This document shows, piece after piece, positions 1,447-49,158 of a stretch of 64,000 bases of DNA; the stretch's first letter is position 1, and every line of letters begins with the position of its first letter. The DNA comes from Squalus acanthias. Its lineage: Eukaryota. The notes under the pieces were generated by a model that did no database searches, was not told where the DNA came from, and saw nothing but the letters and a program-made list of their open reading frames with translations. The DNA lies in assembly GCA_030390025.1 (NCBI GenBank), contig CM059432.1, positions 61,692,001-61,756,000 on the forward strand. Reading direction: 5' to 3'. A program made the translations under genes and the position numbers.

Positions 1447-2190
1447 GTGGCCGATTTTCATATATACTGCACATTGAGTGGACGATGGGCGAAGTGATCT
1501 CACCACCCACTCAATGGCACTAGCGACGGTCCCAAACCATTTTCATGGTCAAACCTCATTTTAATTATCGGAAGTGTGTGCTTGAAGAAGGAAGAAGGCA
1601 TCCGGGGGTGGGCACAAGGGGCCGGCAGCGGGCTGAAACATTTCTGTGGGGAATGGAGGAGCATTCTCCTGGCCCCAGAAAAATCAGTGCACCAATGCCA
1701 CAGATTTTTCCTGCATTTTTAGAGCAGCTTGCAGCAGTCCCTTTAAGGATAGCTGTATGGCCAGTCAACGCACAGTTCCATTGGGTGTCGCGCATGCTAC
1801 TACAAATGGCGTTGGACCTGATTTAAATATTTCAATAAGGCTACCTGTTCTGGGTGGAAGCGCTGGCTACCAATTTTAATATCCCGCGTGAAAATCAAGT
1901 CTGTTGAGTTGCAGGCGGCCAGTGGGTGATAGATTTTTAAACAAAATTTTTGTCTGCCTACCAATGTTCCCTGAAATTTTTTGGGGGCTACATGGTCCCT
2001 TTAAGGGGCTGCACAGCTCATTCAAAATACCACCATGCGCGTTTTTTCTATTTAAAAGCCGGCTTGCCCGGCTGCGCGGGACCCCTGGAGTGGGCGCAGC
2101 TTACAGGGAACATTGCTGCCTACCGTACCTTTTTTCAGGGAGAATGGGGCAGAATTTGCCCCCCGCCCCCGCTACAATGTGGAGTAGTTA
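1447..2190. mobile_element. Degenerate non-autonomous Harbinger-like element
   Basis: Starts GTGGCCGATTTT (family TIR-like) after AAAACAC-AGT; GC-rich interior; right end unclear. Confidence 0.4.
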
Positions 2191-2455
2191 AATGGAAACT
2201 CAACAGTTTTGTGGTACAATACTTTTTGCATCATTTCACTGTATAATTCTGCAAGAAAAGCATCTCTCTTCATTTTGTTGCACTTGTTTCCCAGTATAAA
2301 TGTGAGAGAACTATTTAGTAAGTTGCTGGTTGGAACAAAATTCTCACAAGTTGTCCAAGGGATTGTAATTTGTAAGAGAGAGTTTGTTTTAGAATGTTGC
2401 ATTATTTTGCAGTCAGCTATTTTTGTGATGTTTGTACAAGGACAGCTGAGCATAA

Positions 2456-2930
2456 GGGAGTTGATTTTAACCCTAGTCGCCTGGCAGATACCGGGCGGGT
2501 GGGCAGTTAAAATTGTCCAGCTTACTTGCCCGCCCTGGAACTGCTGGGAGCTGAATGGTTGCAATTCTTACCTGCTCAACTGAGCAGGCAGCAAGGATAC
2601 TTGCCCAAAGCCAGCAAGATCCTTCTTAACATACGTCATCATCGGGAGCCAACTGTAATTTTAACTCGGCGGCCTGAACGGAAAGCGGCAATTAAGATCA
2701 TTTTTTTTCTTACTTTCCTTGTGGGGCCAGGAGGAGCGGGAATGCTTCTCTGAGCCCCACAAGGAAAGCTTCAGTCTGGCCTGCCACAAACTCACATCTC
2801 CCCATTCTTATCGCAAGATCTCCGCGGGATGGCCCTGGCAGCTGAACTTACCATTTACCTGCTGTCAGCAGGCGTCCCCTGGGCTGCGCGTTTGTCCGCC
2901 AACTTCCCGCCTGGAACCGGAATTTTCATA
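2456..2930. mobile_element. Non-autonomous Harbinger-like MITE remnant
   Basis: Begins GGGAGTTGATTTTAACCC; shares sequence with 31302-31957 (terminus in inverted orientation; TTCCTTGTGGGGCCAGGAGGAGC core). Confidence 0.55.
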
Positions 2931-3179
2931 TATTACAAGCAGATCTCTCATGGTGTTGCTCACGATGAGTCAGAGCATTTACTGTTTTATAGCAGATGGG
3001 GTGTTTATGCCATGTAGGGTATATTGTCAGAGACATGGATTTACAGTGACTAGCTATCTAACTCTAACTGATACATTTTTTTATACCATCATGATGTGAA
3101 TTTTCAGCTTTAAAACTGATCAGGGATAAACATTAAAAGCGTAATATAGATAAATTAATATTTTATAAAATAGATCTAA

Positions 3180-6037
3180 GGTCTAAGATAGGTTTACAGT
3201 GCATGTGTGTAAACACACGAAGTGTGGTAAATAAGGTTGGTGAGCTGCAGGCGCAAATAGCCATATGGGAATATGATGTTGTGGTGATAATGGAGACCTG
3301 GCTCAAAAAAGGGCAGGATTGGGTACTAAATATTCCTGGATATAAGGTGTTCAGGAAAGATAGAGAAGGAAAGAAAGAGGTGGGGTGGCAGTATTGATTA
3401 AGGAGAATATTACAGTGCTGGAGAGAGAGGATGTCCTGGAGGGTCAAGGACAGAATCTATTTGGTTAGAGTTGAGAAACAATAGAGCTGCCATTACACTA
3501 CTAGGTGTATTCTATAGGCCGCCAACTAATGGGCTGGATATAGAGGAGCAAATATGCAGAGAAATTACAGAGAGATGCAAGAACTATAGAGTGGTGATAA
3601 TGGGGGACTTCAATTATCCTAATATAGACTGGGATAGTAAGAGTGTAAAGGGCAGAGAGGGGGAAGAATTTCTGAATGTGTGTTCAGGAGAACTTTCTTG
3701 ATCAGTATGTTTCTGTCCCAACAAGAAAGGAGGCATTGCTGGATCTGGTTCTGGGGAATGAGGTGGGTCAAGTGGAGCAAGTGTCAGTAGGAGAACATTT
3801 AGGGAGCAGTGATCATAGTATCATAAGGTTTATATTAGCTATGGAAAAGGACAGGGAGCAACCTAGAGTAAAAATACTTAATTGGAGGAAGGCCAATATC
3901 AGTGGGTTGAGAACGGATCTGGCCCGGGTAAATTGGAATCAAAGATTGACAGGCAAAACTGTAATCAAACAATGGGCTAGCTTTAAAGAGGAAATAGTTT
4001 GTGTACAGTCGAGGTACATTCCCACGAAGGGGAAAGGTAGGGCAACCAAAGCCAGAGCTCCCTGGATGACAAAAGAGATAGAGAGTAAGATGAAGCAGAA
4101 AAAGGGGCCATATGACAGATATCAGGTTGAGAATACAAGTGACAACCAGGCTGAATATAGAAAGTTCAGAGGGGAATTAAAAAAGGAAATAAGAGGGGGC
4201 AAAGGGAGAGTATGAGAATTGACTGGCAGCTAACATAAAAGGGAATCCAAAAGTCTTCTATAGGCATATAAATAATAAATGAGTAGTAAGAGGAGGGGTG
4301 GGGCCAATTAGGGACCAAAAAAGGAGACTTACGCATGGGGGCAGAGGGCATGGCTGAGGTACTAAATGAGTACTTTGCATCTGTCTTTACCAAGGAAGAA
4401 GATGCTGCCATAGACATAGTGAAAGAGGAGGTAGTTGAGATACTGGCTGGGATAGAAATTGATGAAGAGGAGATACTAGAAAGGCTGGCTGTACTTAAAG
4501 TAGATAAGTCACCAGGACCAGATGGGATGCATTCTCGGATGCTGAGGGAGCTAAGGGTGGAAATTGCGGAGGTACTGGCCATAATCTTCCAATCCTCCTT
4601 AGATGCAGGAGTGGTGGCAGAGGACTGGAGAATTGTAAATGTTACACTCTTGTTCAAAAAAGGGTATAAGGATAAATCCAGCAACTACAGGCCAGTCAGT
4701 TTAACCTCGGTTGTGGGGAAGCTTTTGGAAATGATAATCCGGGAAAAATTAACCGTCACTTGGACAAGTGTGGATTAATTAAGGAAAGCCAGCACGGATT
4801 TGTCAAAGGCAAATTGTGTTTAACTGACTTGATTGAGTTTTTTGATAAGGTAACAGAGAGGGTTGATGAGGGCAATGCGGTTGATGTGGTGTACATAACT
4901 TCCAAAAGGCGTTTGATAAAGTGCCATATAATAGGCTTGCCAGCAAAGTTGAAGCCCATGGAATAAAAGGGACAGTGGCAGCATGGATACAAAATTGACT
5001 AAGTGACAGGAAACAGAGAGTAGTGGTGAACGGTTGTTTTTCGGACTGGAGGAAGGTACACAGTGGTGTTCCCCAGGGGTCGGTACTAGGACCACTGCTT
5101 TTCTTGATATATATTAATGACTTGGACTTGGGTGTACAGGGCACAATTTCAAAATTTGCACAAAACTTGGACGTATAGTGAACAGTGAGGAGGATAGTGA
5201 TAGACTTCAAGACAGACAGGCTGGTGGAATGGGCGGACACGTGGCAGATGAAATTTAACGCAGAAAAGTGCAAAGTGATACATTTTGGGAGGAAGATTAA
5301 GGAGAGGCAATATAAACTAAAGGATACAATTCTAAAGGGGGTGCATGAACAGAGAGACCTGGGGGTATATGTGCACAAATCGTTGAAGGTGGCAGGGCAG
5401 GTTGAGAAAGCAATTAAAAAATCTTACAGGATCCTGAGCTTCATAAATAGAGGCATAGAGTACAAAAGCAAAGAAGTTATGATGAACCTTTATAAAACAC
5501 TGGTTCGACCTCAACTGGAGTATTGTGTCCAATTCTGTGCACCGCACTTTAGGAAGGATGTGAAGGCCTTAGAGAGGGTGCAGAAAAGATTTACAAGAAT
5601 GGTTCCAGGGATGAGGGATTCAGTTACATGGACAGACTGGAGAAGCTGGGGTTGTTCTCCTTAGAGCAGTCCAGCAGTCATGAGGGGTCTAGATAGAGTA
5701 GATAGAGAGAAACTGTTCCCATTGACGGAAGGGTCGAGAACCACAGGGCACAGATTTAAGGTGATTGGCAGAAGAACCAAAGGCGAGATGAGGAAAAACT
5801 TTTTTACGCAGCGAGTGGTTAGGATCTGGAATGCACTGCCTGAAAGGGTGGTGGAGGCAGATTCAATCATGGCTTTCAAAAGGGAATTGGATGAGTACCT
5901 GAAGGAAAAAAATTTGCAGGGCTACGGGGAAAGGGCGGGGGAGTGGGACGAGCTGAAGTGCACTTGCAGAGAGCCGGCCTGGGCTCGACGGGCCGAATGG
6001 CCTCCTTCTGTGCTGTAACCATTCTATGATTCTATAA
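3180..6037 (+). mobile_element. CR1 LINE, 5'-truncated, frameshifted ORF2 (APE endonuclease + RT)
   Basis: ORF pieces with VNTRSVVNK, IMGDFNYPNIDW, LLDLVL, SDHSII, KSPGPDG, NYRPVSLTS, QHGF, PQLEYCVQF, FFTQRVVRIWNALP; ends in an ATTCTATGATTCTAT-type CR1 tail. Confidence 0.93.
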
Positions 6038-6394
6038 AATAAAGGCCACTTGCTTACAATTTTCACAGAATAATCGATACAGTCGTGGAATTCAATCCCC
6101 AAATCACAAGCAAAGTCCCAGAATACCATTTAGTAGAATTTGAAGTCTAATTTGTCAACAAATATTATTGTTTCATTAGTGATTATGTCCAAAATTTAGG
6201 TATAATTGCTCACAGGCACTCCGCAGACAATAATTAAAAGGAATGTATAATGCCAGTATCTCCCAGTCTGCTGCAGTGTCTTGAAGATGTTGCAGGATGT
6301 GTACTGGCTCACTGCTATGCTTGCATATATTGTTAAAAGCAGTCGTAACCCATCGTTAAAAATGTATTTGTGCTCTTAGTTCTTGGCAGGTAAC

Positions 6395-9300
6395 GGAAAC
6401 ATAGTGGTTATGTTACTGGACGAGTAATCGAGAGGCCTGGACTAATGATCCAGAGACATGAGTTCAAATCCCACCACAGCAGCTGTGGAATTTAAATTCA
6501 GTTAATTAAATAAATCTGGAATAATAAGCAAGTATCCGTAAAGGTGAACGTGAAATGATTGGATTGTCGTAAAAACCCGTCCTTTAGCGAAGGAAATCTG
6601 CCATCCTTACCTGGTCTGGCCTATATGTGACTCCAGACCCACAGCAATGTGGTTGACTCTTAACTGCCCTCGGAACTGGCCTAGCAAGCCACTCAGTTGT
6701 AACAAACTGCAACAAAGAAAATAATAAGGAAACCGGACGGACCACCCGGCATCGACCTCGGTACCGGCTTCAGACATGACATCGGCACATCCAGCCCAGT
6801 CAACCCTGTAAAGTCCTCCGGACTAACATCTGGGGACTTGTGCCAAAATTGGGAGAGCTGTCCCACAGACTAGTCAAGCAACAGCCTGACATAGTCATAC
6901 TCACAGAATCATACCTTTCAGCCAACGTCCCAGATTCCTCCATCACCATCCCTGGGTATGTCCTGTCCCACCGGCAGGACAGACCCACCAGGGGTGGCGG
7001 CACAGTGGTATACAGTCGGGAAGGAGTGGCCCTGGGAGTCCTCAACATTGACTCCGGACCCCATGAAGTCTCATGGCCTCAGGTCAAGCATGAGCAAGGA
7101 AACCTCCTGCTGATTACCACCGACCACCCTCCCTCAGCTGATGAGTCAGTACTCCTCCATGTTGAACACCACTTGGAAGAAGTACTGAGAGTAGCAAGGG
7201 CACAGAATGTACACTGGGTAGAGGACTTCAATGTCCGTCACGAAGAGTGGCTCGGTAGCACCACTACTGACCGAGCTGGCCGAGTCCTGAAAGACATAGC
7301 TGCCAGACTAGGACTGCGGCAGGTGGTAAGAGAACCAAAATGAGGGAAAGGCCTACTTGACCTCATCCTCACCAATCTACCTGTCGCAGATGCATCTGTC
7401 CATGACAGCTGTGACCACTGCATAGTCCTTGTGGGGACGGAATCCCGTCATCACACTGAGGACACCCTCCATTGTGTTGTGTAGCACTACCACTGTGCTA
7501 AATGGGTTAGAATCAGAACAGATCTAGCAGCTCAAATCTGGGCATCCATGAGGCGCTGTGGGCCATCAGCAGCAGCAGAATTGTATTCCACCACAATCTG
7601 TAACCTCATGGCCCTGCATATCCCTCACTCTACCATTACCATCAAGCCAGGAGACCAACCCTGGTTCAATGAGGAGTGCAGAAGAGCATGCTGGGAGCAG
7701 CACCAGGCGTACCTAAAAATGAGGTGCCAAACTGGGAAAGCTGCAACACAGGACTATATGTATGCTAAACAGGGGAAGCAGCATGCTATAGACAGAGCTA
7801 AGCAATCCCACAATCAATGGATCAGGTCAAAGCTCGGCAGTCCTGTCACATCCAGTCGTGAATGGTGGTGGACAATTAAGCAACTAACGGGAGGAGGAGG
7901 CTCCATGAATATCCCATCCTCAATGATGGCGGAGCCCAGCACACGAGTGCAAAAGACAAGGCTGAAGCGTTTGCAACCATCTTCATCCAGAAGTACCAAG
8001 TGGATGATCCATATCGGCCTCCTCCAGAGGTCCCCACCATCACAGAAGCCAGTCTTCAGCCAATTCAATTCACTCCACGTGATATCAAGAAATGGCTGAG
8101 CGCACTGGATACAACAAAGGCTATGGGCCCTGACAACATCCCGGATGTCGTGCTGAAGACTTGTGCTCCAGAACTAGCCGCACCTCTAGCCAAGCTGTTC
8201 CAGATTGGTGAAGTCAAGCGTAGGTCCCTTGCAGTCAGAATCAGGGGAACTTATAATGGGGAACAAAGAAATGGCAGACCAATTAAATACATATTTTGGT
8301 TCTGTCTTCACAAAGGAGGACACAAATAACCTCCCAGAGATGTCGGGGAACATAGGGTCTGATGAAAGGGGGGAACTGAAAGAAATCAGTATTTGTAGGG
8401 AAATGGTGTTAGGGAAATTGGCTGGATTGAAGGCCAATAAATCCCCAGGGCTTGATAATCTACATCCTAGGGTACTTAAGGAAGTGGCCCTAGAAATAGT
8501 AGATGCATTGCTGATCATCTTCCAACATTCGATGGAATCTGAAACAATACCCATGGATTGGAGGGTAGCTAATGTTACCCCACTATTCAAAAAAGGTGGT
8601 AGAGAGAAAACGGGGAATTACAGACATCAGCCTGACATCGGTAGTGGGGAAAATGCTAGAGTCCATTATAAAAGATGTAATAGCAGAGCACTTGGAAAAC
8701 AGTGACAGGATTGGACAAAGTCAACATGGATTTACAAAAGGTAAATCGTGCTTGACTAATCTACTGGAATTTTTTGAGGATGTAAATAGATAAGGGAGAA
8801 CCAGTGGATGTGGTGTATTTGGACTTTCAAAAGGCTTTCGATAAGGTCCCACATAAGAGATTAGCGTGTAAAGTTAAGGCACATGGGATTGGGGGCAAGG
8901 TATTGACTTGGATAGAGAACTGTTTGGCAGACAGAAAGCAAAGAGTTGGAATAAACGGGTCTTTTTCCGAGTGGCAGGCATTGACTAGTGGGGTACCGCA
9001 GGGATCGTTCCTTGGACCCCAGCTATTCACAATATATATTAATGATCTAGACAAGGGAACTAGATGTAATATCTCCAAGTTTGCAGACGACACAAAGCTG
9101 GGTGGGCGTGTGTGCTGTGAGGAGGATACCGAGAAACTCCAGGATGATTTGGACAGGTTGGGTGATTGGGCAGAAGCATGGCAGATGCAATATAATGTGG
9201 ATAAATGCGAGGTTATCCACTTTGGTGGCAAAAACAGGAAGGCAGATTATTATCTGAATGGCAATAGATTGGGAGAAGGGGAAGTGCAACGAGACCTGGG

Positions 9301-11466
9301 TGTCCTTGTGCACCAGTCGCTGAAGGTAAGCATGCAGATGCAGCAGGTGGTTAAGAAGGCAAATGGTATGTTGGCCTTCGTAGCGAGTGGGTTTGAGTAC
9401 AGGAACAAGGATGTCTTGCTGCAGTTGTACAGGGCCTTGGTGAGACCACATCTTGAGTATTGTGTGCAGTTTTGGTCGCCTTATCTGAGGAAGGAGGTTC
9501 TTGCCATGGAAGGAGTTCAGCGAAGATTCACTTGGCTGATACCTGGGATGGCAGGAATGACGTATGAGGAGAGATTGGGTCGATTGGGCTTATACTCGCT
9601 GGAGTTTAGAAGAATGAGAGGGGATCTCATTGAAACTTATAAAATTCTGACAGGACTGGACAGACTAGATGCAGGAAGGATGTTCCCGATGGTCGGGGAG
9701 TCCAAAACCAAGGGTCACAGGATAAGGGGTAAGCCATTTAGGACAGAAATGAGGAGGAATTTCTTCACCCAGAGAGTGGTGAACCTGTGGAATTCTCTAC
9801 CACAGAAGGCAGTAGAGGCCAATTCATTAAATATATTCAAGAAGGAGTTGGATATATTTCTTAAGGCTAAAGGGATCAAGGGATTTGGGGAGAAAGCAGG
9901 GACAGGGTTCTGAATTTAGATGATCAGCCATGATCGCATTGAATGGCGGAGCAGGCTAGAAGGGCTGAATGGCCTACTCCTGCTCCTATCTTCTATGTTT
10001 CTAAGTACAGCTACAACACTGCCATCTATCCAACAATGTGGAAAACTGCCCAGGTATGTCCTGTCCACAAAAAGCAGGACAAATCCAATCCAGCCAATTA
10101 CCGCCCCATCAGTCTACTCTCAATCATCAGCAAAGTGATGGAATGTGTCTTCGACAGTGCTATCAAGCGGCACTTGCTAACCAATAACCTGCTCACTGAT
10201 GCTCAGTTTGGTTTCCGCCAAGACCACTCAGCTCCAGACCTCTGCACAGCCTTGGTCCAAACATGGACAAAAGAGCTGAATTCCAGAGGTGAGGTGAGAG
10301 TGACTGCCCTTGACATCAAGGCAGCATTTGATCGAGTGTGACATCAAGGAGCCCTAGTAAAATTGAAGTCAATGGGAATCAGGGGAAAACTCTCCACTGG
10401 CTGTAGTCATACTTAACACAAAGGAAGATGGTTGTGGTTGTTGGAGGTCAATCATCTCAGCCCCAGGACGTCGCTGCACTAGTTCCTCAGGGCAGTGTCC
10501 TAGGCCCAACCATCTTCAGCTGCTTCATCAATGACCTTCCCTCCATCATAAGGTCAGAAGTGGGGATGTTCGCTGATGACTACACAGTGTTCCGTTCCAT
10601 TCGCAACTCCTCAGATAGTGAAGCAGTCCATGCCCGAATGCAGCAAGACCTGGACGACATTCAGGCTTGGGCGGATAAGTGGCAGGTAACATTCGCACCA
10701 GACAAATGCCAGGCACTGACTATCTCCAACAAGCAAGAGTCTAACCTCTGCCCCTTGAAACTCAATGGCATTACCATCACTGAAACCCCTACCATCAACA
10801 TCCTGGGGGTCACCATTGACCAGAAACATAACTTGACCAGCCACATAAATACCGTGGCAACAAGAGCAGGTCAGAGACTGGGGATTCTGTGGCGAGTGTC
10901 TCACCTCCTAACTCCCCAAATCCTTTCCACCATCTACAAAGCACAAGTCAGGAGTGTGATGGAATACTCTCCACTTGCCTGGATGAGTACAGCTCCAACA
11001 AAACTCAAGAAGCTCCAGGACAAAGCAGCCCGCTTGATTGGCACCCCATCCACCACCTTAAACATTCACTCCCTCCACCACCGGCGCACCATGGCTGCAG
11101 TGTGTACTATCTACAAGATGCACTGCAGCAACTCACCAAGGCTTCTTCGGCAGCACCTCCCAAACCCACGACCTCTACCACCTAGAAGGACAAGGGCAGC
11201 AGGTGCATGCGAACACCATCACCTGCAAGTTCCCCTCCAAGTTACAGACCATCCTGACTTGGAAATATATCTCCATTCCTTCCTCATTGTTGGGTCAAAA
11301 TCCTGGAACTCCCCTCTTAATAGACTGTGGGAGTACCTTCACCATACGGACTGCAGCGGTTCAAGAAGGCAGCTTACCACCACCAACTTCTCATGGGCAA
11401 TTAGGGATGGGCAATAAATGCTGGCCTTGCCAGTGACGCCCACATCCCAGGAACGAATAAAAAAAT
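6395..11466 (+). mobile_element. LINE family B (CR1/L2-group APE+RT) with tRNA-like 5' head; interrupted by a CR1 at 8204-10005
   Basis: B-box GAGTTCAAATCC at 6460-6471; APE start KVLRTNIWGLVPKLGEL...PDIVILTESYL near 6810; RT motifs [39 protein letters not shown]; 3' end GGGCAATAAATGCTGGCC...GAATAAAAAAA. Confidence 0.9.
8204..10005 (+). mobile_element. CR1 LINE, 5'-truncated, nested in LINE family B
   Basis: 369-aa uninterrupted RT C-terminal ORF 8804-9913 (YLDFQKAFDKVPH, GVPQGS, KFADD); TTCTATGT-type tail; host sequence GTTCCAG|TACAGC rejoins exactly around it. Confidence 0.93.
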
Positions 11467-11747: not shown

Positions 11748-13504
11748 GGGCTGGATTTTCCTGGGGGTCAGCGGGCGCGATCGATGGCAGGTCGGGTGGG
11801 AAAGTATTTTTTTCCCCAAGTGAGCTGGGACCCCGCTGTGAACCCACCGCCACATGCCTTTCCCCGATGTCGGGTCTGTCAGCGCTAAGCAGACCCGACA
11901 CACAGCAGCGGGTTCACAGTGGGGGACCCAATTCAGGTAATTAGTGGCTTGTTTAGAGCCACTTAAGAATGAATTGCAGCTCACCTTCTGCATTTGACAG
12001 CTCGCCCACGGGATCCACGCTGGTCATGGGCCACATCTGTCAAGCTGAGGCGGGGGTCCAGTGGCCATTGAATCAGCTGATGAGTTGACATCTTCAAATG
12101 TATAGTAAAAGCTCCCACCTTAGAGATATCTTCCCTCAGCCACAAACTCTTCCTCACTGTATTTCCACAACAGATTCACCATGCTTCAAATCTTTACACA
12201 AGTCTATATCCAGTCTGACCTCATTACCTCTCTCACCATTGACAGATCGCTTCTGTCATCTCTACTTCACCTGCCATCTATTCCATCAGCATAGGTGCCC
12301 TTTATACTCTCTCACCTTGGTCCTCAGAATCCCACCACAATCAGCTCCAACACCAGCAGCACCAGGCACACCAGCAGCACCAACAACAACACCACCAACC
12401 TTCTCCGCAAATCACCTGATGCTGCCCAGGACAGAGGGCATCAGCACCCAACCACATTGCTGCCCGGGAGGCCAGGGATGGCCTCACCATGGCCACATTT
12501 ACTTCACTTGACGCTGTACACCCTGGCTGCCACAAGATGCGCCAGGTTGGCACCACCCCACACCAACAGCATAAAACATCTCTACAATGCCCAAACCATT
12601 CCTTTCACACTCATCACCATTGCGGGGGCTACTGTTATGTCTCACCATTCACTGCAACTCACTAAGCCACTTCCAAAGGTGCACACAAATCTGTCCAATA
12701 ACGCGACATGTTGAAAATAAAGGTTTCAATGTTTGACACCACATTAACAGAAACTTTACATGAACATTGCATGAAACACCCAAGTGGCTACCCTTGTGTG
12801 TTGTTAGTTGGTATGATTGCATTAGGATGAGTGTGAGGGGTGGCTGGTGAGATGGGGAAGTGATAATGTAGATAGAAACTTTGGGTGGAGGTGCAAGGTA
12901 AGTTGGTGTGAGTAAGGATGTGCAGGAGTAGGGTAGGGAAGACAGAGTGATGGGGATGTGATGAGAGGCACAGCAGGATGAGGTTGAGTGTAGCTTTGTA
13001 CTAACGTTTCATGATCTACTGAGATCATTGAAATGTTTGCGGCACAGCACCCAGGTCCTCCTGACCACATTCCTGCTTGTGCCCTCCTCTGCAATGTGCA
13101 ACCAGGCTGTGTTAGTCTCATGGGAAGGGAAGAGGACCTCCCTGCGTGCTGTGACTCCCTCCATAAGCATATGGAGAGAGTCATGGAAGAGCTTGGGTGC
13201 AGCCCTGTGCCTTTGTGTAGTGCTCGTCAGTGTTTGCAACACCTCAATGCTGTAGAACACTGACAGCACAACTGTCAAAATAAAGTTGGCCATGGTCCCT
13301 TTAAGGAAACTGGCTGATGACACGTCATCAAATGACGTCACCAGACCCGCTTCCTCTAATTGGCAGGCAAACGCACTGGGCGGGCTTAACAAGCCCAATC
13401 AGGGGAAATTCATTTCAGAGGCTGGGATGGAGACAACAGCGTGGTCGGGACCCGCCACCGATGTTGCCCGCCACGGACCCGCTGAGGTTAGTAAAATTGC
13501 AGCC
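11748..13504 (-). mobile_element. Non-autonomous PIF/Harbinger element with Myb/SANT-like gene remnant
   Basis: Ends GGGCTGGATTTT ... AAAATTGCAGCC (imperfect TIR); minus ORF 13009-13398 has APKLFHDSLHMLMEGVTARREVLFP...AWLHIAEE...RTWVLCRKHFNDL (trihelix Myb-like); inverted homolog at 28048-29796. Confidence 0.8.
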
Positions 13505-21600: not shown

Positions 21601-24600
21601 GCCCTCTCTACAGCCCTAGTTATTCGATTCGCCAGGACTCTAGCCCCAGCATGGTTCAAGTGAAGCCCGTCCAAACGGAACAGCTCCCTCTTATCCCAGT
21701 ACTGGTGCCAGTGCCCCACAAATCGAAACCCATTTCTCCCACACCAGTCTTTGAGCCACTTGTTCATTTCTCTGATCTTATTTACCCTATACAAATTCGC
21801 TTGTGGCTCAGGTAGTAATCCAGAGATTATTACCTTTGTGGTTCTGCTTTTTAATTTAGCCCCTAGCTGCTCATACTCTCTCAGCAGAACCTCTTTCTTT
21901 GTCCTACCTATGTCACTGGTGCCTACGTGGACCATGACAACTGGATTCTCCCCCTCCCACTCCAAGTTTCTCTCCAGCCCAGAGGAGATGTCCTTAACCC
22001 TGGCACCGGGCAGGCAACACAGCCTTCGGGACTCACACTCTCGGCTGCAGAGAACAGTGTCTATCCCCCTAACTACTATCCCCTATCACTGCAACATTTC
22101 TTTTTACTCCCCCCCCCCCCCCCCCCCCCTTGAATGGCTCCCTGTACCACGGTGCTGTGGTCAGATTGATCATCCTCCCTGCAGTTCCTGCCCTCGTCCA
22201 CACAGGGAGCAAGAATCTCATACCTGTTAGACAAGGCCAAGGGCTGAGGCTCCTCCATCACTACCTCCTGGATCCCAGTACCTGCCTCGCTTGTAGTCAC
22301 ACCCTCCTGTCCCTGACCATGGGCCAAATTGGAAGTAATTACTCTAGTGGGTGTGACTGCCTCCTGGAACTTAGTGTCCAGGTAATGCTCCCCCTCCCTA
22401 ATGTGTCGCAGTGTCTGAATCTCGGACACCAGCTCATCAACTCTGAGCCGAAGTTCCTCGAGCAGCCAACATTTGCTGCAGATGTGGTCGCCTTGGACCT
22501 CAATGGTGTCCACCAGCTCCCACACCCAACAACAACAACACATGGCCTGGTCTCCCATCTTAATTAATTAGTTTTAAAATTTGGAACACGTATATCTTTT
22601 AATCTACACCAAGGCACTTAAACTTAGATGCCAAAGTTTGGAAAAAAAGCGAGAAATATAGAAATACTCACCAATCAATCACTTACCTGCTTTTTGGTGA
22701 TGTCACACTTCGATTACTTTTTACTTCTTTGCACTCATTGGTCCGTTGTAGCTGCTCTCCTGGGCTCCCGCTGTTTTAGTAGCTCCGAACTCTCGCTCTC
22801 TCCTGGGCTCCCGCTGTTTTAGTAGCTCCGAACTCTCGCTCTCTCCTGGGCTCCCGCTGTTTTAGTAGCTCCGAACTCTCACTCTCTCCTGGGCTCCCGC
22901 TGTTTTAGTAGCTCCGAACTCTCGCTCTCTCCTGGGCTCCCGCTGTTTTAGTAGCTCCGAACTCTCGCTCTCTCCTGGGCTCCCGCTGTTTTAGTAGCTC
23001 CGAACTCTCGCTCTCTCCTGGGCTCCCGCTGTTTTAGTAGCTCCGAACTCTCGCTCTCTCCTGGGCTCCCGCTGTTTTAGTAGCTCCGAACTCTCGCTCT
23101 CTCCTGGGCTCCCGCTGTTTTAGTAGCTCCGAACTCTCACTCTCTCCTGAGCTCCCGCTGTTTTAGTAGCTCCGAACTCTCACTCTCTCCTGGGCTCCCG
23201 CTGTTTTAGTAGCTCCGAACTCTCGCTCTCTCCTGGGCTCCCGCTGTTTTAGTAGCTCCGAACTCTCACTCTCTCCTGGGCTCCCGCTGTTTTAGTAGCT
23301 CCGAACTCTCGCTCTCTCCTGGGCTCCCGCTGTTTTAGTAGCTCCGAACTCTCGCTCTCTCCTGGGCTCCCGCTGTTTTAGTAGCTCCGAACTCTCACTC
23401 TCTCCTGAGCTCCCGCTGTTTTAGTAGCTCCGAACTCTCACTCTCTCCTGGGCTCCCGCTGTTTTAGTAGCTCCGAACTCTCGCTCTCTCCTGGGCTCCC
23501 GCTGTTTTAGTAGCTCCGAACTCTCGCTCTCTCCTGGGCTCCCGCTGTTTTAGTAGCTCCGAACTCTCGCTCTCTCCTGGGCTCCCGCTGTTTTAGTAGC
23601 TCCGAACTCTCGCTCTCTCCCTGGGCTCCCGCTGTTTTAGTAGCTCCGAACTCTCGCTCTCTCCCTGGGCTCCCGCTGTTCTAGTAGCTCCGAACTCTCG
23701 CTCTCTCCTGGGCTCCCGCTGTTTTTGTAGCTCCGAACTCTCGCTCTCTCCTGGGCTCCCGCTGTTTTAGTAGCTCCGAACTCTCGCTCTCTCCCTGGGC
23801 TCCCGCTGTTCTAGTAGCTCCGAACTCTCGCTCTCTCCTGGGCTCCCGCTGTTTTAGTAGCTCCGAACTCTCACTCTCTCCTGGGCTCCCGCTGTTTTAG
23901 TAGCTCCGAACTCTCGCTCTCTCCTGGGCTCCCGCTGTTTTAGTAGCTCCGAACTCTCGCTCTCTCCTGGGCTCCCGCTGTTTTAGTAGCTCCGAACTCT
24001 CGCTCTCTCCTGGGCTCCCGCTGTTTTAGTAGCTCCGAACTCTCGCTCTCTCCCTGGGCTCCCGCTGTTCTAGTAGCTCCGAACTCTCGCTCTCTCCTGG
24101 GCTCCCGCTGTTTTTGTAGCTCCGAACTCTCGCTCTCTCCTGGGCTCCCGCTGTTTTAGTAGCTCCGAACTCTCGCTCTCTCCCTGGGCTCCCGCTGTTC
24201 TAGTAGCTCCGAACTCTCGCTCTCTCCTGGGCTCCCGCTGTTTTAGTAGCTCCGAACTCTCACTCTCTCCTGGGCTCCCGCTGTTCTAGTAGCTCCGAAC
24301 TCTCGCTCTCTCCTGGGCTCCCGCTGTTCTAGTAGCTCCGAACTCTCGCTCTCTCCTGGGCTCCCGCTGTTTTAGTAGCTCCGAACTCTCGCTCTCTCCC
24401 TGGGCTCCCGCTGTTCTAGTAGCTCCGAACTCTCGCTCTCTCCTGAGCTCCCGCTGTTTTAGTAGCTCCGAACTCTCGCTCTCTCCTGGGCTCCCGCTGT
24501 TTTAGTAGCTCCGAACTCTCACTCTCTCCTGGGCTCCCGCTGTTTTAGTAGCTCCGAACTCTCGCTCTCTCCTGGGCTCCCGCTGTTTTAGTAGCTCCGA

Positions 24601-25058
24601 ACTCTCACTCTCTCCTGGGCTCCCGCTGTTTTAGTAGCTCCGAACTCTCGCTCTCTCCTGGGCTCTCACTGTTTTTGTAGCTCCGAACTCCCGCTCTCTC
24701 CTGGGCTCCCGCTGTTTTAGTAGCTCCGAACTCTCACTCTCTCCTGGGCTCCCGCTGTTTTAGTAGCTCCGAACTCTCGCTCTCTCCTGGGCTCCTGCTG
24801 TTTTAGTAGCTCCGAACTCTCGCTCTCTCCTGGGCTCCCGCTGTTTTAGTAGCTCCGAACTCTCGCTCTCTCCTGGGCTCCCGCTGTTCTAGTAGCTCCG
24901 AACTCTCACTCTCTCCTGGGCTCCCGCTGTTCTAGTAGCTCCGAACTCTCGCTCTCTCCTGGGCTCCCGCTGTTTTAGTAGCTCCGAACTCTCGCTCTCT
25001 CCTGGGCTCCCGCTGTTTTAGTAGCTCCGAACTCTCACTCTCTCCTGGACTCCCGCTG
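18676..25058 (-). mobile_element. Full-length-type CR1 LINE (ORF1 + ORF2, degraded) with 5' tandem array
   Basis: ORF1 pieces 22558-21591: CxxC finger + coiled coil (HICSKCWLLEELRLRVDEL) and SGNH esterase (VHVGTSD, DGLHLN). ORF2 21546-18767 ([28 protein letters not shown]). Tail ACATAAGAACATAAGAA; ACCTG on both flanks (18671-18675, 25059-25063). Confidence 0.93.
22752..25058 (-). repeat. 43-bp tandem array, ~53 copies (plus-strand unit GGGCTCCCGCTGTTTTAGTAGCTCCGAACTCTCGCTCTCTCCT)
   Basis: Direct reading; successive GGGCTCCC at 22762 and 22805; near-identical units with a few recurring variants. Confidence 0.98.
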
Positions 25059-28047: not shown

Positions 28048-29796
28048 GGCCGTGATTTTACTAACCAAGGCGGGTGACGTCGGTGGCGGGTCTCGGCCCT
28101 ACTGCTGGTTCCAGCCCGGCCTCCAAAATGACTTTCTGATGATTGGGCTTGTTCATTTCACCCAGCGAGTTTCCCGGCAAATTGAAGGAAGTGGGTCTGA
28201 TGATGTCATTTATGATGCATCATCAGCCGGTTTCCTTAAAGGGACCATGACCAAATTAATTTTGACAGTTGTGCTGTCAGTGTTCTACAGCATTGAGGTG
28301 TTGCAAACACTGACAAGCACTGCACAGAGGTGCACGGCTGCACCCAGGCTCTTCCATGACTCCCTGAGGCAGTCACAGCACGCAGGGAGGTCCTCTTCCC
28401 TTCCCATGGGTGGAAGAGATCTCCCTAGGACAGCAACGCAGCCTGGTTTCACATTGCACAGGAGGACACAAGCAGGGATGTCGTCAGGAGGACCTGGCTG
28501 CAGTGGCGCAAACCTTTCAATGATCTCAGTAGATCACGAAACATTAGTACAAAGCCACACTCAACCTCATCCTGCTGTGCCTCTCATCACATCCCCATCA
28601 CTCTGCCTTCCGCACCCCTCACACTCACCCTCATCCTAGTGCAATCATACCAACTAACAACACACAAGGGCAGGCACTTGGGTGTTTTAGCCAATGTTCA
28701 TGTAAAGTTTCTGTTAATGTGCTGTCAAACATTGAAATCTTTATTTTCAACACTTTGCATTCTTGGACAGATTTGTGTGCACTTTTGGAAGTGGCTTAGT
28801 GAGTTGTAGTGAATGGTGAGACATAACGGTACCTCCCGCAATGGTGATGAGTGTGAAAGGAATTGCTTGGACATTGTAGGAATGCTTTATGTTGTTGGTG
28901 TGGGGTGGTACCAACCTGGCAGCCAGGGTGTACAGCGTCAAGTGAAGTAAATATGGCCATGGTGAGTCCCTGGCCTCCCGGGCAGCAATGTGGTTGGGTG
29001 CTGATGCCCTCTGTCCTGTGCAACATCAGGTGATTGCGGAGAAGGTTGGTGTTGTTGTTGGTGCTGCTGGGGTGCCTGGTGATGCTGGTGTTGGCGTTGA
29101 TCTTGGTGGGATTCTGAGGAGCAAGGTGAGAGAGTTTCAAGTGCACCCATGCTGATGGAATAGATGGCAGGTGAAGTAGAGATGACAGAAGCGATCTGTC
29201 AATGGCGAGAGAGGTAATGAGGTCAGACTGGATGGAGACTTGTGTAAAGACTTGCAGCATCCTGCATCTGGAGTGAAAATGCTGTTTAGAGAAGCTAGTG
29301 GTTAAGGAAACATTTCTCAATCAGCTCGGAGCTTTCACTTGACATTTGAAGCTGTCAACTCATCAGCTGATTCAATGGCCACTGACCTCCCACCTCAGCT
29401 TCACAGACAAGGTCTAGGCACAGCGGGAAACCGGTGGGCGACCTGTGAAATTCAAAAAGCTGGGAAAAAACGATTGATAAGTGGCTGTAAACAAACCACT
29501 AATGATTTTAATTACCTCCCTCGCCTCTGCGTGTCGGGTCTGCTCAGCGCTGGCAGACCCGATATCGGGAAAGTCCAGTGTGCGCGTTTTGACAGCGGGT
29601 TAACAGGCAGTTAATTGGCTCTAATCCCCTTCCCGCCTCGAGGAGACGGGTCCCTGCACGAGTCGGGGACCTGCCTCCCGGGAAGATGGCACGGAGGCGG
29701 GTTGGGAGCGGGTTCGGTACCCGCTCCCAGTTTCTGCCATTTTCCCGGCAGTCCCGCCTCCATACCCGCCTCCCCAGGGCTGGGAAAATTCCCCCC
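28048..29796 (+). mobile_element. Non-autonomous PIF/Harbinger element with Myb-like remnant (inverted relative of 11748-13504)
   Basis: Ends GGCCGTGATTTT ... AAAATTCCCCCC; shares long blocks with 11748-13504 in reverse complement (e.g. FLKGTM.(N/K).ILTVVLSVFYSIEVLQTLTST reading). Confidence 0.8.
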
Positions 29797-29799
29797 TTA

Positions 29800-30110
29800 G
29801 TCACTGTTGCAGTGTAGGAAAACATAGCAGCCAAATTACACATAGCTAGGTCACACAAACAGCAGTGAGCTAAATAATCAGATTAACTCTTTTAATGATA
29901 TTGGGTGAGGGATAAATATTGGTCAGGATACCAGGAGAACTTCCCTGTTCTTCTTCAAATAGTGCCATGGGATCTTTTATGACTACCTGAGAGAAGAGAC
30001 TAGGTTTGACGTCTCATCTGAAAGACGGCACCTCTGACAATGCAGGACTCCGTCAGTACTGCACTGAAGTGTCAGACTAGGTTATGTGCTGAAGTCTCTG
30101 GAGCGGGGAT
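29800..30110 (-). mobile_element. DeuSINE-type SINE fragment (SacSINE1/AmnSINE1-like central domain)
   Basis: GAGGGATAAATATTGGTCAGGATACCAGGAGAACTTCCCTGTTCTTCTTCAAATAGTGCCATGGGATCTTTTA...GAAAGACGGCACCTCTGACA recognised from memory as the Deu-domain reverse complement. Confidence 0.65.
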
Positions 30111-34839: not shown

Positions 34840-37623
34840 TTTTTTTATATTAGTTCCTGGGATGTGGGCGTCACTGGCAAGGCCAGCATTTATTGCCCAT
34901 CCCTAATTGCCCTTGAGAAGGTGGTGGTGAGCCGCCTTACTGAACCGCTGCAATCCACGTGGTGAATGTACTCCCACAGTGCTGTTAGGGAGGGAGTTCC
35001 AGGATTTTGACCCAGCAACTATGAAGGAATGCCAATATATTTGCAATTCAGGATAGTGCATGACTTGGAGGGGAACTTGGAGGTGGTGGTGTTCCCGTGC
35101 GCCTGCTGCCCTTGTCCTTCTAGTTGGTAGAGGTTGTGGGTTTGGGAGGTACTGCAGAAGAAGCCTTGGCGAGTTGCTGCAGTGCATCTTGTAGATGGTA
35201 CACACTGCAGCCACGGTGCACCGTTGATGGAGGGAGTGAATGTTTAAGGTGGTGGATGGGGTGCCAATCAAGCGGGCTGCTTTGTCCTGGATGGTGTCGA
35301 GCCTCTTGAGTGCTGTTGGAACTGCACTCATCCAGGCAAGTGGAAAGTATTCCATCACACTCCTGACTTGTAGATGCTGGAAAGGCTTTGGGGAGTCAGA
35401 AGGTGAGACACTCGCTGCAGAATACCCAGCTTCTGGCCTGCTCTTGTAGCCACAGTATTTATGTGGCTGGTCCAGTTAAGTTTCTGGTAAATGGTGAACC
35501 CCAGGATGTTGATGTTGGGAGATTTGGCAATGGTAATGCCGTTGAATGTCATGGGGCGGTGGTTAGACGCTCTCTTGATGGAGATGGTCATTGCCTGGCA
35601 CTTGTGTGGCACGAATGTTACTTGCCACTTATCAGCCCAAGCCTGAATGTCATCTAGGTCTTGCTGCATGTGGGCATAGACTGCTTCATTATCTGAGGAG
35701 TTGCGAATGGAACTGAACACTATGCAATTATTAGCGAACATTCCCACTTCTGACTTTATGATGGAGGGAAGGTCATTGATGAAGCAGCTGAAGATGGTTA
35801 GGCCTAGGACAGTGCCCTGAGAAACTCCTGCAGCAATATCCTTGGGCTGAGATGATTGGCCTCTAACAACCACAAAAATCTTCCTTTGTGCTAGGTATGA
35901 CTCCAGCCAGTGGAGAGCTTTGCCCCTGTTTCCCATTGACTTGAATTTTACTGGGGCTCCTTGATGCCACTCTCGGTCAAATGCTGCCTTGATGTCACTT
36001 TCACCTCACCTCTGGAATTCAGCTCTTTTGTCCATGTTTAGACCAAGGCTGTAATGAGGTCTGGAGCCGAGTACTGCTGGCGGAACCCAAACTGAGCATC
36101 CGCGAGCAGGTTATTGGTGAGTAAGTGCCACTTGATAGCACTGTCGATAACACCTTCCATCAATTTGCTGATGATTGAGAGTAGACTGATGGGGCGGTAT
36201 TTGGCCAGATTGGATTAGTCCTCCTTTTTGTGGACAGGACATACATCAGCAGTTTTCCACGTTGTTGGGTAGACGCCAGTGTTTTGGCTGTACTGGAACA
36301 GCTTGGCTAGAGGCGCAGCTACTTCTGGAGCACACGTTTTCAGCACAACAGCCGGGATGTTGTCAGGGGCCCATAGCCTTTGCTGTATTCAGTGCGCTCA
36401 GCCGTTTCTTGATATCACGTGGAGTAAATCGAATTGGCTGAAGACTGGCTTCTGTGATGGTGGGGACCTCAGGAGGAGGCCGATATGGATCATCCACTTA
36501 GCACTTCTGGCTGAAGATGGTTGCAAATGCTTCAGCCTTGTCTTTTGCACTCGTGTGCTGGGCTCCGCCATCATTGAGGATGGGGATGTTCATGGAGCCT
36601 CCTCCTCCCGTCAGTTGTTTAATGGTCCACCACCATTCACGACCGGATGTGGCAGGACTGCAGAGCTTTGTCTGATCCGTTGGTTGTGGGATAGCTTAGC
36701 TCTGTCTATAGCATGCTGCTTCCAATGTTTAGCATGCATGTAGTCCTGTGTTGCAGCTTCCTCAGGCTGGCACCTTATTTTTAGGTACACCTGGTGCTGC
36801 TCCTGGCATGCTCTTCTACACTGCTCATTAAACCAGGATTGATCGCCTGTCTTGAACCAGGTTTGGTCGCATGACTTGATGTTAATGGTAGAGGATATGC
36901 CGGGCCATGAGGTTACAGCTTGTGGTGGAATACAATTCTGCTGCTGCTGATGGCCCTGAGTGCCTCATGGATGTCCAGTTTTGAGCTGCTAGATCTGTTC
37001 TGAATCTATTCCAGTTAGCATGGTGGTAGTGCCACACAACACGATGGAGGGTGTCCTCAGTGTGAAGACGGGACTTCGTCTCCACAAGGACTGTGCGGTG
37101 GTCACTGCTACCAATACTGTCATGGACAGATGCATCTGCAACAGGTAGATTGGTGAGGACGAGATCAAGTAGGTTTTTCCCTCGTGTTGGTTCTCTCACC
37201 ACCTGCCGTAGGACCAGTCTGGCAGCTATGTCCTTCAAGACTTGCCCTAGCTCAGTCAGTAGTGGTGCTACCGAACCACTCTTGGTGATGGACATTGAAG
37301 TCCCACACCCAGAGTACATTCTGTGCTCTTGCTACCCTCAGTGCTTCTTCCAAGTGGTGTTCAACATGGAGGAGTACTGATTCATCAGCTGAGGGTGGGC
37401 GGTAGGTGGTAATCAGCAGGAGGTTTCCTTGCCCATGTTTGACCTGATGCCATGAGACTTCATGGGGTCCGGGGTCAATGTTGAGGTCTCCCAGGGCCGC
37501 TCCCTCCCGACTGTGTACCACTGTGCCGCCACCTCTGGTGAGGTGGTTGAGGACATACCCAGGGATGGTGATGGAGGAGCCTGGGACATTGGCTGAAAGG
37601 TATGATTCTGTGATTATGACTGT
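34840..37623 (-). mobile_element. LINE family B copy 2, 5'-truncated
   Basis: Reverse-complement homolog of 6893-11466 (without the CR1 insert); poly(T) at 34840; APE and RT ORF fragments. Confidence 0.92.
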
Positions 37624-43820: not shown

Positions 43821-45610
43821 TATTTTTTAATTGAATTTTATTTTTATTCATTCACAGGATGTGGGTGTCGCTGGCAATGCCAGCATTTATTGCCCATCCC
43901 TAATTTCCCTTGAGAAGGTGGTGGTGAGCTGCCTTCTTGAACCGCTGCAGTCAATGTGGTGAAGGTCCTCCCACAGTGCTGTTAGTAGGGAGTTCCAGGA
44001 TTTTTACCCAGCGATGATGACGGAACGGTGATATATTTCCAAGTCAGGAGGGTGTGTGACTTGGAGGGGAACTTGGAGGTGGTGGTGTTCCCATGTGCCT
44101 GCTGCCCTTGTCCTTCAAGGTGGTAGGGAGGTGCTGTCAAAGAAGCCTTAGCGAGTTGCTGCAGTGCATCTTGTAGATGGTACACCCTGCAGCCACATTG
44201 CACTGGTTCTGGAGGGAGTGGTGGATGGGGTACCGATCAAGCAGCATGCTTTGTCCTGGATGGTGTCAAGCTTCTTGAGTGTTGTTGGAGCTGCACTCAT
44301 CCAGACAAGTGGAGAGTATTCCATCACACTCCTGACTTGTGTCTTGTAGATGGTGGAAAGGCTTTGGGAAGTCAATCGCCACAGAATTCCCAGCCTCTGA
44401 CCTGCTCTTGTAGCCACAGTATTTATGTGGCTGGCCAAGTTAAGTTTCTGCTCAATGGTGACCCTCACGATGTAGATGGTAGGGGATTTGACGATGGTAA
44501 TGCCATTGAAGGTCAAGGGTAGGTGGTTAGACTGGGCTAAAAATTTGGAAGCTTACGCAAAAAATTGGCGAAAAGAAGGCGGCCGCTCTACACTGGCTCC
44601 CTGTCCCTCGAAATAATAGATTTAAAATCCTCATCCTTATCTTCAATCATCCTCTATGCCTTGCTCCACCTTACATCTGTAACCTCTTGCAGCCTTATAT
44701 CCCATCTCACATCCTTTGGTCTCTGACTGGCTTTCTGGCGGGTCCCGCGACGTCCTCCATTTTCCCAGGCCCGGCAGTGCTGCCTTTAAGATGTATTGCC
44801 CTGCAGATTTAAATGTGGTAGCGGTGACACGACTTAACGACACCACGGCAAACTTGGACCTTTGCACTGAGTTCAGCACTGGGTCCTAACCACGCCAAGT
44901 AAACCCAGCGTGCAAGCAGATTCACAGAGGCACTGTCAGCACCTCTTAAAGGGACACACACATCTTTCAGGTAAGTTTGCATTTAAGCTTTTGGACTGGG
45001 TTTTTTTGATTTTACTGAAGTAGTGGCTTGCTGCAATAGATATTAAATGTTTTTTAAGTGTGTAGGGAGTGCTGCTGGATGCTTGCAAGTCCTCGGATGG
45101 CAAAGGAAGACCTCCGAGAAGTCAGAACATTGAGCAGTGTGTGAGACTAGTGGTGCAGTTGGTAGGAGATGGCTTTTGAAGATGCATTCATTGACCTTGA
45201 CCAGTGGTTTGAGGTCTTGAAGCTTCTTTGGGCACTGGAGCCAGGTGGTGGGGGCGACACTGCTGGCAGTGACGGCCTCGGTGAAGTGGTCCCACATCAT
45301 TCTTTCTGGAGGGCCTCCTGGCCCTGTGGGTAGAGGACTTCTCTTGCAGTGTTGACCCCCTGCACAAAGCTGGAGTGCTGCGTGCAAGACCCTGGGTGCC
45401 ACTTTTCTGGCTTGCTGAGTCTGAAGCACTTTTTCCATTTTTTTAGATTCAGAAGGGAATTCAGCTTTAAGTGCTGAAGACTCCCATTTGAGACTTTTTA
45501 ATGTTAATGTTTTTCTTAAAAGACAGTAAGGGCTGAAAACTGCAGTTTTTCACTTCATTTTAATTTTTATTAGTTCTGAACGCATTGGCCTTTTAATTGG
45601 GAATTAATTA

Positions 45611-48600: not shown

Positions 48601-49158
48601 GGAGTACTGTGCACAGTTTTGGTCTCCTTATCTGAAAAAGGACATACATGCCTTCGAGGCGGTGCAATGAAGGTTCACTAGATTGATCCCTGGGATGAGA
48701 GGGTTGTCCTCTGAGGAGCGATTGAGTAGATTGGGCCTGTACTATCTGGAGTTTAGAAGAATAAGAGGTGATCTCATTGAAATATATAAGATTCTGAGGA
48801 GGATTGACAGGATAGATGCTGAGAGCTTGTTTCCCCTGGCTGGAGAGTCTAGAACTAGGGAGCATAGTCTCAGGATAAGGGGTCGACCATTTAAGACTGA
48901 GATGAGGAGGAATTTCTTCATTCAGAGGGTTGTGAATCTTTGGAATTCTCTACCTGAAAGGGCTGTGGATGCTGAGTCAATTAGTATATTCAAGGCTGAG
49001 ATAGATAAGATTTTTGGACTCTCGGGGAATCAAGGGATATGGGGATCGGGCGGGAAGATGGAGTTGAGGTCGAAGATCAGCCATGATCTTAGTGAATGGC
49101 GGAGCAGGCTCAAAAGACCATATGGCCTACTCCTGCTGTTAATTCCTATGTTCTTGTG
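45611..49158 (+). mobile_element. CR1 LINE, 5'-truncated, degraded, interrupted by a MITE
   Basis: GVVYRP, IMGDFNLH, ILDLVLCN, KSPGPDGLHPRVLKE, PHLEYCAQFWSP, FFIQRVVNLWNSLP; tail TTCCTATGTTCTTGTG. Confidence 0.92.
47631..48467. mobile_element. PIF/Harbinger MITE (837 bp)
   Basis: Perfect TIR GGGCTGGATTTT / AAAATCCAGCCC, TSD ACA; CR1 sequence rejoins around it. Confidence 0.92.

Follow-up and report, generated by a model that had tools for sequence, protein, structure and literature searches.

Layout of a decayed Zenon element

The window analysed here is a stretch of 64,000 nucleotides from Squalus acanthias (contig CM059432.1). Positions 6389–8203 and 10004–11466 together form one dead, decayed copy, about 3.3 kb long, of an elasmobranch Zenon LINE. 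The copy and its relatives in the window are laid out as follows, with the basis of each assignment in brackets.

6389–6481, plus strand: tRNA-Thr(AGT)-like head, the element's 5' end (ARAGORN on the majority sequence, sub-threshold Rfam, shared alignment start)
6397–6407, plus strand: A box, decayed in this copy (motif scan; majority alignment)
6460–6471, plus strand: B box (motif scan; majority alignment)
6482–6670, plus strand: conserved 5' body, common to local short SINE forms, with no clear Deu domain (published alignment, window SINE comparison)
6671–6696, plus strand: hairpin with a 7-nt anticodon-like loop at 6681–6687 (Ala AGC), a candidate anticodon mimic (fold, scan, pair counts, mapping)
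6709–6712, plus strand: in-frame site of GCT(A), the complement of the loop; mutated in this copy (scan, indel and pair counts, mapping)
6709–6824, plus strand: N-terminal extension in the ORF2 frame, basic and Met-free (synonymous:non-synonymous counts between subfamilies)
6813–8203, plus strand: 5' part of ORF2, interrupted by stops and frameshifts and covering the APE endonuclease and linker (Pfam PF03372/PF14529, translation)
8204–10003, plus strand: later, 5'-truncated insertion of a canonical CR1, foreign to the element (majority alignment, self-BLAST)
10004–11396, plus strand: 3' part of ORF2, reverse transcriptase and C-terminus, broken (Pfam PF00078)
11385–11466, plus strand: 3' tail, a stem-loop and short A tail common to short SINE forms (tail list, fold)
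34840–37621, minus strand: second copy, 5'-truncated (91% to the family majority)
43837–51445, minus strand: third copy, 5'-truncated, in two pieces, 49441–51445 and 43837–44533 (self-BLAST, majority alignment)

The family majority sequence (3304 nt) aligns as 1–1844 and then 1843–3304 on either side of the CR1 insertion. Its single ORF, stop-free over 973 codons and with 329 nt of sequence 5' of the frame, encodes APE and reverse transcriptase in the absence of ORF1 (frame and Pfam), and the listed tails of the copies are poly-A; both are characters of Zenon within the CR1 group. The initial annotation had seen no room for an ORF1 and had suspected that the family might already be in repeat libraries, rightly in both cases. 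The APE motif starts near 6810–6825, about 420 nt past the start of the head, and the family is catalogued as elasmobranch CR1-Zenon (SquAca_Zenon-1/-2/-3 and the Zenon-1 of CarCar, RhiTyp, ScyCan and HypSab; Stuart et al. 2026, PMC13343379), likewise about 3.3 kb long, without ORF1 and with a poly-A tail. Two motif searches of the published consensuses matched SquAca_Zenon rows only, and SquAca_Zenon-1 is almost letter for letter the family majority over the first 400 nt, the span compared by eye. A quick reverse transcriptase tree, built without a labelled Zenon reference, gave a clade of 30 rows (SH-aLRT 100) separate from canonical CR1. Target-site duplications, scored in 19 copies, were short or missing and gave no information, and a viral contig collection gave no match in either a protein or a motif search.

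The tRNA-like head and its link to the ORF

A degenerate A box and a clean B box had been reported ahead of the endonuclease, and they were found at the positions listed above. In the family majority the A box is complete (element positions 9–19), and ARAGORN at an 80% threshold calls tRNA-Thr(agt); sub-threshold Rfam tRNA matches fall at the head of two of three other copies, and neither program calls a tRNA in the window copy. The same first base is the start point in 40 of 66 head-bearing alignments. Read by eye, the published Zenon-1 consensuses of five species all open with A and B boxes, the B box being canonical in three. None of 60 B-box bases was changed in the five copies free of search bias; we kept the low B-box decay among copies out of the evidence, since it may reflect search seeding and only these five are unbiased.

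Linkage of head and ORF across many independent copies, the check that the initial annotation had called for, was borne out. The head runs on into APE in 39 of 39 other scored matches, 22 of 29 loci selected by the head alone continue directly into the endonuclease, and colinear full-length copies bearing both are present among the loci. The element thus has the A/B-box tRNA-like head of a tRNA-derived SINE (SINE2) but is neither short nor non-coding (3304 nt, APE–RT ORF). In the available excerpts of Kojima (2018; PMC5786205), tRNA-headed bipartite SINEs (Bov-tA, CoeSINE4 and others) likewise combine a tRNA head with LINE 5' and 3' parts by internal deletion. There the head is joined to a non-coding remnant, whereas in shark Zenon the coding parent bears it, and therefore deletion alone makes a SINE.

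Zenon elements of other animals (lepidopteran Zenon with its SIDE Persaeus, PMC6740152; hagfish; coelacanth) resemble the shark element in their single APE–RT ORF, A tail and internally deleted derivatives. Persaeus has no Pol III promoter. In the consensuses from hagfish and coelacanth, the first 400 nt contain several T4 runs and no head is seen (by eye; these may include flank). Because relatives are headless, the head was probably acquired by capture in the elasmobranch lineage. Neither 'tRNA' nor 'polymerase III' occurs in the main text of PMC13343379, and the available portions of that paper say nothing of the head, the avoidance of terminators or the lack of an AUG.

Two other assignments were not adopted. 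Only short blocks of the 5' body resemble a published Deu alignment (by eye), so it was not taken as the Deu domain of SacSINE1; a well-defined Deu SINE at another place in the window aligns to it weakly (shuffle P 0.012–0.02). Nor is a built-in 3' terminator evident, T runs occurring in a minority of tails and most tails being plain A.

T runs on the sense strand

TTTT and TVTTT are given as the shortest functional Pol III terminators in the accessible part of PMC8466645. The initial annotation had described a sense strand free of TTTT beside TTTT-rich CR1s, one run, judged post-insertion, in each antisense copy and an expectation of about four, and each observation held. No T4 run occurs in either 6390–8203 or 10004–11466, where A4 runs number 6 and 8 respectively; each of the five CR1 stretches counted has 3–10 T4 runs, the antisense copies have their single runs at ~35878 and ~50247, where the family majority has no T4, and the computed expectation is 3.9.

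A consensus containing T4 runs had been named as evidence against the proposal; the sense strand of the family majority has no TTTT. Counted together, TTTT and TVTTT occur 0 times on its sense strand and 29 times on the antisense (sense absence, P 0.0002 by mononucleotide and P 0.014 by synonymous-codon shuffle), and the older subfamily majority also has 0 over 1870 nt. T4 absence taken alone gives P 0.023 (mononucleotide), 0.18 (dinucleotide) and 0.09 (synonymous codon, the control proposed earlier), the last two values not significant. T4 absence is by itself a modest signal, stronger once TTT and TVTTT are counted.

Synonymous codon choice shows the same bias. T is used at 75 of 258 sites where it would stand isolated, at 28 of 121 where it creates TT and at 2 of 37 where it creates TTT or longer (last against first, Fisher P 0.001). 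Its use is flat across run contexts in 14 clade relatives (0.57–0.59) and lies near 0.5 in two CR1 ORFs from this genome; the choice between A and G shows no comparable fall with run length. C-rich runs are not depleted, and the cause is therefore not polypyrimidine avoidance.

All 62 related ORFs examined contain at least five T4 runs, and T3 observed/expected is 0.25–0.44 in the Zenon element against 0.73–1.33 in these ORFs, a comparison of a majority sequence with single contigs. The 16 clade relatives with DNA, which leave out the nearest proteins P0035–P0039, have 8–36 T4 runs each. The element is T-poor overall (T fraction 0.19; relatives at least 0.235), making the relatives a comparison set unmatched in composition. 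An A and B box pair was found upstream of none of the 62, although some of their upstream flanks are so short (1–330 nt) that a head could go unnoticed.

The frame start and a proposed Pol III route

The lack of an in-frame ATG before APE, noted earlier for this copy, extends to the family majority, where the first in-frame Met is residue 287 of 973. Ahead of the endonuclease, the sequence shows protein-type evolution in the ORF2 frame and not in that of a nearby ATG: differences between subfamilies are 8 synonymous to 4 non-synonymous in the ORF2 frame and 1 to 8 in the +1 frame, although several of the 8 may stem from CpG decay. Indels after the GCT preserve the frame in 55 of 63 copies, the −3 class sitting in an AAT repeat that is prone to slip by three anyway.

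The 973-codon frame opens just 3' of a hairpin whose loop resembles the anticodon loop of tRNA-Ala, the cognate GCT being in frame. By analogy, hairpin and GCT resemble pseudoknot I of the dicistrovirus IGR (type 6) IRESs (PMC3517527) and are an unproven candidate for such a structure. Both systems have an anticodon-like stem-loop, a bulged stem, a short variable linker and an in-frame cognate triplet, together with a non-AUG start that is probable in the element. The linker between loop and triplet is 11–12 nt in the element and 6–10 in the viral IRESs, which are further marked by pseudoknots II/III and SLIV/SLV, whereas pseudoknot I alone has a candidate counterpart here. Rfam IRES families gave no match in the window or other copies, and the loop–codon pair showed no compensatory change among the copies examined. 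The pattern, defined after it had been sighted, recurs in 20 of 2000 shuffles and near the ORF start in 0 of 16 relatives; the scan also picks the head's own anticodon loop, through a non-conserved match. Several hairpins are predicted in the fold.

Four features withstood tests: the linkage of head and ORF, the absence of ORF1, the lack of any in-frame AUG, and terminator avoidance confined to one strand. On these grounds we consider a Pol III reading the best. A tRNA-type promoter combined with no Pol III stop signals and no normal start codon makes it likely, though well short of certain, that the Zenon family is transcribed by Pol III from its head and translated without a cap or AUG. Thus those four elements of the initial annotation's SINE-headed, Pol III-read LINE stand, and Pol III transcription itself is what we infer from them. 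TFIIIC would bind the internal A and B boxes, and Pol III would read through 3.3 kb to stop at the first genomic T run downstream. Ribosomes would begin translation at most a few codons away from the hairpin at 6671–6696, where a loop–GCT pseudoknot might mimic a tRNA on its codon. ORF2p would then bind the 3' stem-loop and the RNA be inserted by target-primed reverse transcription, and internal deletions retaining both ends would give ready-made SINEs. The full version, an autonomous vertebrate retrotransposon that bypasses Pol II, cap and AUG through a Pol III coding RNA, a tRNA-Ala anticodon-mimic pseudoknot start and deletion products born as SINEs, is speculative, and we rate it improbable as a whole. 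In R2 elements, LINE RNA that lacks a cap is translated with no conventional AUG, as is proposed for Zenon; R2 RNA is a Pol I co-transcript freed by a ribozyme, and the R2 endonuclease is of a different kind.

That the head is an unrelated SINE lying upstream by accident, with TTTT absent by chance, might be suggested by the short SINE forms that share the head (111 exact junction matches), but it is refuted by the linkage, which recurs at dozens of independent loci and in five species, and by the colinear full-length copies. Pol II could instead make the element, from an internal promoter or by host-gene read-through, the head being a captured 5' UTR, perhaps cut by RNase P or merely recruiting TFIIIC, and T avoidance reflecting, for example, RNA stability or export. 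LINEs are generally regarded as Pol II transcripts (PMC5786205, available excerpts), a precise 5' end is equally expected from a tRNA-like fold, the T4 statistics are weak on their own, and an AATAAA-like sequence precedes the A run of the tail. Nothing in a Pol II origin, however, predicts an avoidance specific to run length, strand and T, absent from headless relatives and sparing C-rich runs; we regard it as unlikely, though not negligible.

A somewhat stronger but still minority alternative keeps the same transcription and dispenses with the pseudoknot, ORF2 being reached from the +1-frame AUG (a 48-codon upstream ORF) by −1 frameshifting, by re-initiation, or else by scanning as far as a near-cognate ACG. 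All five species have the +1 ATG in their published heads (the consensuses of four other species and two of the three from the fifth), and it is present in the majority of contigs in two of four runs, and the young subfamily has an in-frame ACG directly after the GCT. Against this, the ATG is present in 13 of 43 scorable copies and ATA in 30, the older subfamily majority also has ATA, the +1 frame shows the non-synonymous excess given above, and the older subfamily and other species have ACA or AAA in place of the ACG.

If Pol III transcription of Zenon is true, the customary division into coding LINEs made by Pol II and non-coding SINEs made by Pol III would no longer hold, the element would be a naturally occurring Pol III messenger of several kilobases, and a LINE could become a SINE in a single step. 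In the available part of a 2013 review (PMC3894237), IGR-type IRESs in non-LTR elements are raised merely as a possibility; the Zenon 5' region is a concrete candidate for one.

A known family with a tRNA-like head

As initially annotated, an A-box/B-box pair lies close upstream of the APE domain, whose first motif follows about 420 nt after the start of the head in the window copy:

6397–6407, + strand: A box, decayed (seen in the sequence)
6460–6471, + strand: B box (seen in the sequence)
8204–10003, + strand: canonical CR1 insertion splitting the element (the family majority aligns at 1–1844 before it and 1843–3304 after it)

The window copy is dead, with stops, frameshifts and 92–93% identity to the majority sequence, which was built from 20 copies (19 colinear loci and the window copy). 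The majority is 3,304 nt long and has a single stop-free frame of 973 codons with APE and RT. ARAGORN calls its head tRNA-Thr(agt) at a lowered threshold; Rfam tRNA matches are sub-threshold. The suspicion that the family was already catalogued proved right. In the accessible part of the PMC13343379 supplement it is published as SquAca_Zenon, the only rows matched by two of its motifs; over the 400 nt compared, the 5′ end of SquAca_Zenon-1 agrees by eye with the majority. By eye, A and B boxes also open Zenon-1 of four more elasmobranchs in that part, inter-box changes notwithstanding, and the B box is canonical in three, whereas the hagfish and coelacanth rows have no visible head and several TTTT (T4) runs. 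Zenon is defined in the accessible text as ORF1-less and poly-A-tailed, and the main text of that paper has 0 occurrences of 'tRNA' and 'polymerase III'. No paper found in the largely open-access literature searched describes a Zenon with a Pol III head or a coding LINE made by Pol III. Elasmobranch Zenon is a known family whose anatomy has gone unremarked in that literature. Zenon-derived stretches inside shark database gene models (P0001, P0012, P0017, P0020, P0028 and P0032) are likely annotation run-ins.

Head and ORF are linked in many copies. A 716-nt query spanning head to APE gave 6,660 candidates in the 3.7-Gb genome, of which 40 were scored; APE was reached from the head in all 39 scored matches besides the window. 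This query favours linked copies, so a query with the head alone is the fairer test. From its 39 scored matches 29 other loci were fetched, of which 22 run straight into APE, two reach the ORF across deletions, three join the tail and two stop. Of 39 copies chosen by their 3′ end, five retain the head (three with an internal deletion) and the others are 5′-truncated, as ordinary LINEs are. The same first base recurs in 40 of 66 head-bearing alignments, and contigs from two sequencing runs with other organism labels (X2 and X9) bridge the junction between APE and the body that precedes it. At loci L032, L048, L082 and L043, Zenon heads adjoin inverted pieces of other Zenon copies.

The window also holds a minisatellite (22755–25058; 43-bp unit, 53 copies, 97% matches), a 33-bp tandem repeat (62647–62950; 9 copies) and a 1.5-kb repeat without a family name in two inverted copies (11832–13472 and 28069–29599; 82–83%).

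Avoidance of Pol III terminators

The reported contrast with CR1 holds: each half of the window copy has 0 T4 runs (A4 runs, 6 and 8), against 3–10 in each of five CR1 stretches counted in the window. One T4 run occurs in each of the two long antisense copies, as noted at sites where copies differ; the majority has none at either. The majority has 0 T4 against 3.9 expected under a mononucleotide null (P 0.023), close to the initial rough figure of 4, 1.6 under a dinucleotide null (P 0.18) and 1.9 under a synonymous shuffle. Against the codon-shuffled control, T4 alone gives P 0.09. TTT runs in the ORF number 5 against 11.3 expected (P 0.007). The shortest working Pol III terminators are TTTT and TVTTT, according to the accessible part of PMC8466645; together they occur 0 times in sense and 29 times in antisense (P 0.0002 mononucleotide, 0.014 synonymous shuffle), and likewise 0 times over 1,870 nt of the older subfamily majority (46 pattern matches, 30 fetched).

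Synonymous T use, scored at C/T sites outside CpG by the length of T run made, is 75/258 for isolated T, 28/121 where TT is made and 2/37 for TTT or longer (P 0.001). No comparable fall with run length is seen in 14 clade relatives (0.57–0.59, with two near-duplicates excluded), in two CR1 ORFs from the same genome or in a comparison of A with G. These relatives come from 80 metagenome loci, of which 62 with an ORF of at least 600 aa were retained and 18 dropped; 16 of the 62 group with the shark RT (SH-aLRT 100, quick tree). All 62 ORFs have at least five T4 runs, and their observed/expected TTT is 0.73–1.33 against 0.25–0.44 in Zenon here, the relatives being T-richer (at least 0.235 against 0.19) and a majority being set against single contigs. 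An A- and B-box pair was found upstream of 0/62, some flanks being short. Transcription of headed Zenon by Pol III is the best reading, and we consider it fairly probable. Loci L053, L055, L063 and L068 have at least five T in place of the A-tail start, which could be a terminator for those copies, or slippage.

A frame without AUG and a candidate tRNA-mimic start

The first in-frame Met of the majority ORF is residue 287, whereas 14 of 16 clade relatives have a Met among the first 52 codons of the frame. A +1-frame ATG, 98 nt upstream of APE, is present in the published heads of all five species (accessible supplement) and in 13 of 43 scorable copies here (ATA in 30; 20 unscored). Between element 336 and APE, the differences between young and old subfamily majorities count as 8 synonymous and 4 non-synonymous when read in the ORF2 frame, against 1 and 8 in the +1 frame; some of them may be CpG decay. 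On this contrast, the stretch before APE is likely translated, in a frame lacking AUG. The young subfamily has a stop at element 327–329, which bounds the start.

Directly upstream of this coding-type stretch, a hairpin (element 298–323) presents a 7-nt loop resembling the tRNA-Ala(AGC) anticodon loop, and GCT(A), in frame and complementary to the loop, lies 12 nt downstream in 55/64 copies. The accessible rows of the other four species preserve loop, GCTA and frame by eye; one of them carries an indel ahead of GCT and has lost 3 nt behind it. Indels after GCT keep the frame in 55/63 young and 7/9 old copies. Stem pair 303–319 is A-C in young copies, G-C in 17/33 old copies and A-U in the ray consensus. 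The arrangement resembles pseudoknot I of dicistrovirus IRESs, for which three base pairs and a genuine anticodon loop are enough, with a 6–10-nt linker (PMC3517527, accessible part). Scanning the 3,304 nt for this pattern, defined post hoc, gave two matches, this hairpin and the head's own anticodon loop; 20 of 2,000 shuffles match. The pattern occurs near the ORF start in 0/16 clade relatives, Rfam IRES families gave no match, the loop–codon pair does not covary among the sequences compared, and loop position 309 varies in 17/73 copies and in one run. The head's anticodon arm (window 6421–6427, Thr AGT) and the downstream hairpin (6681–6687, Ala AGC) have similar loops, so the latter may be a duplicated tRNA arm. 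A tRNA-mimic start is a candidate only, and a bolder addition to the Pol III reading; the whole package, Pol III transcription with such a start, we hold to be rather unlikely.

SINE derivatives and origin of the head

A body-to-tail junction pattern gave 111 exact matches (control, 0). Among 30 junction loci fetched, 18 share one junction and six another, with heads almost identical to that of the LINE; among 30 old-type loci, about 14 are short forms and have different junctions. Internal deletions with short overlaps are common (78 junctions, SINE loci included). The pattern fits repeated SINE birth by deletion, which would stand beside Kojima's model, in which a head is added to a deleted LINE (PMC5786205, accessible part). 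The body was considered as a Deu domain and is not clearly one. A separate SINE at window 29800–30090 (− strand) has a clear Deu domain, agreeing by eye with the published AmnSINE1 Deu row, and a tail different from that of Zenon; it is probably of SacSINE1 type. Since lepidopteran Zenon derivatives (PMC6740152, accessible part) and the clade relatives are without a Pol III promoter, a single capture of the head in elasmobranch ancestry is probable.
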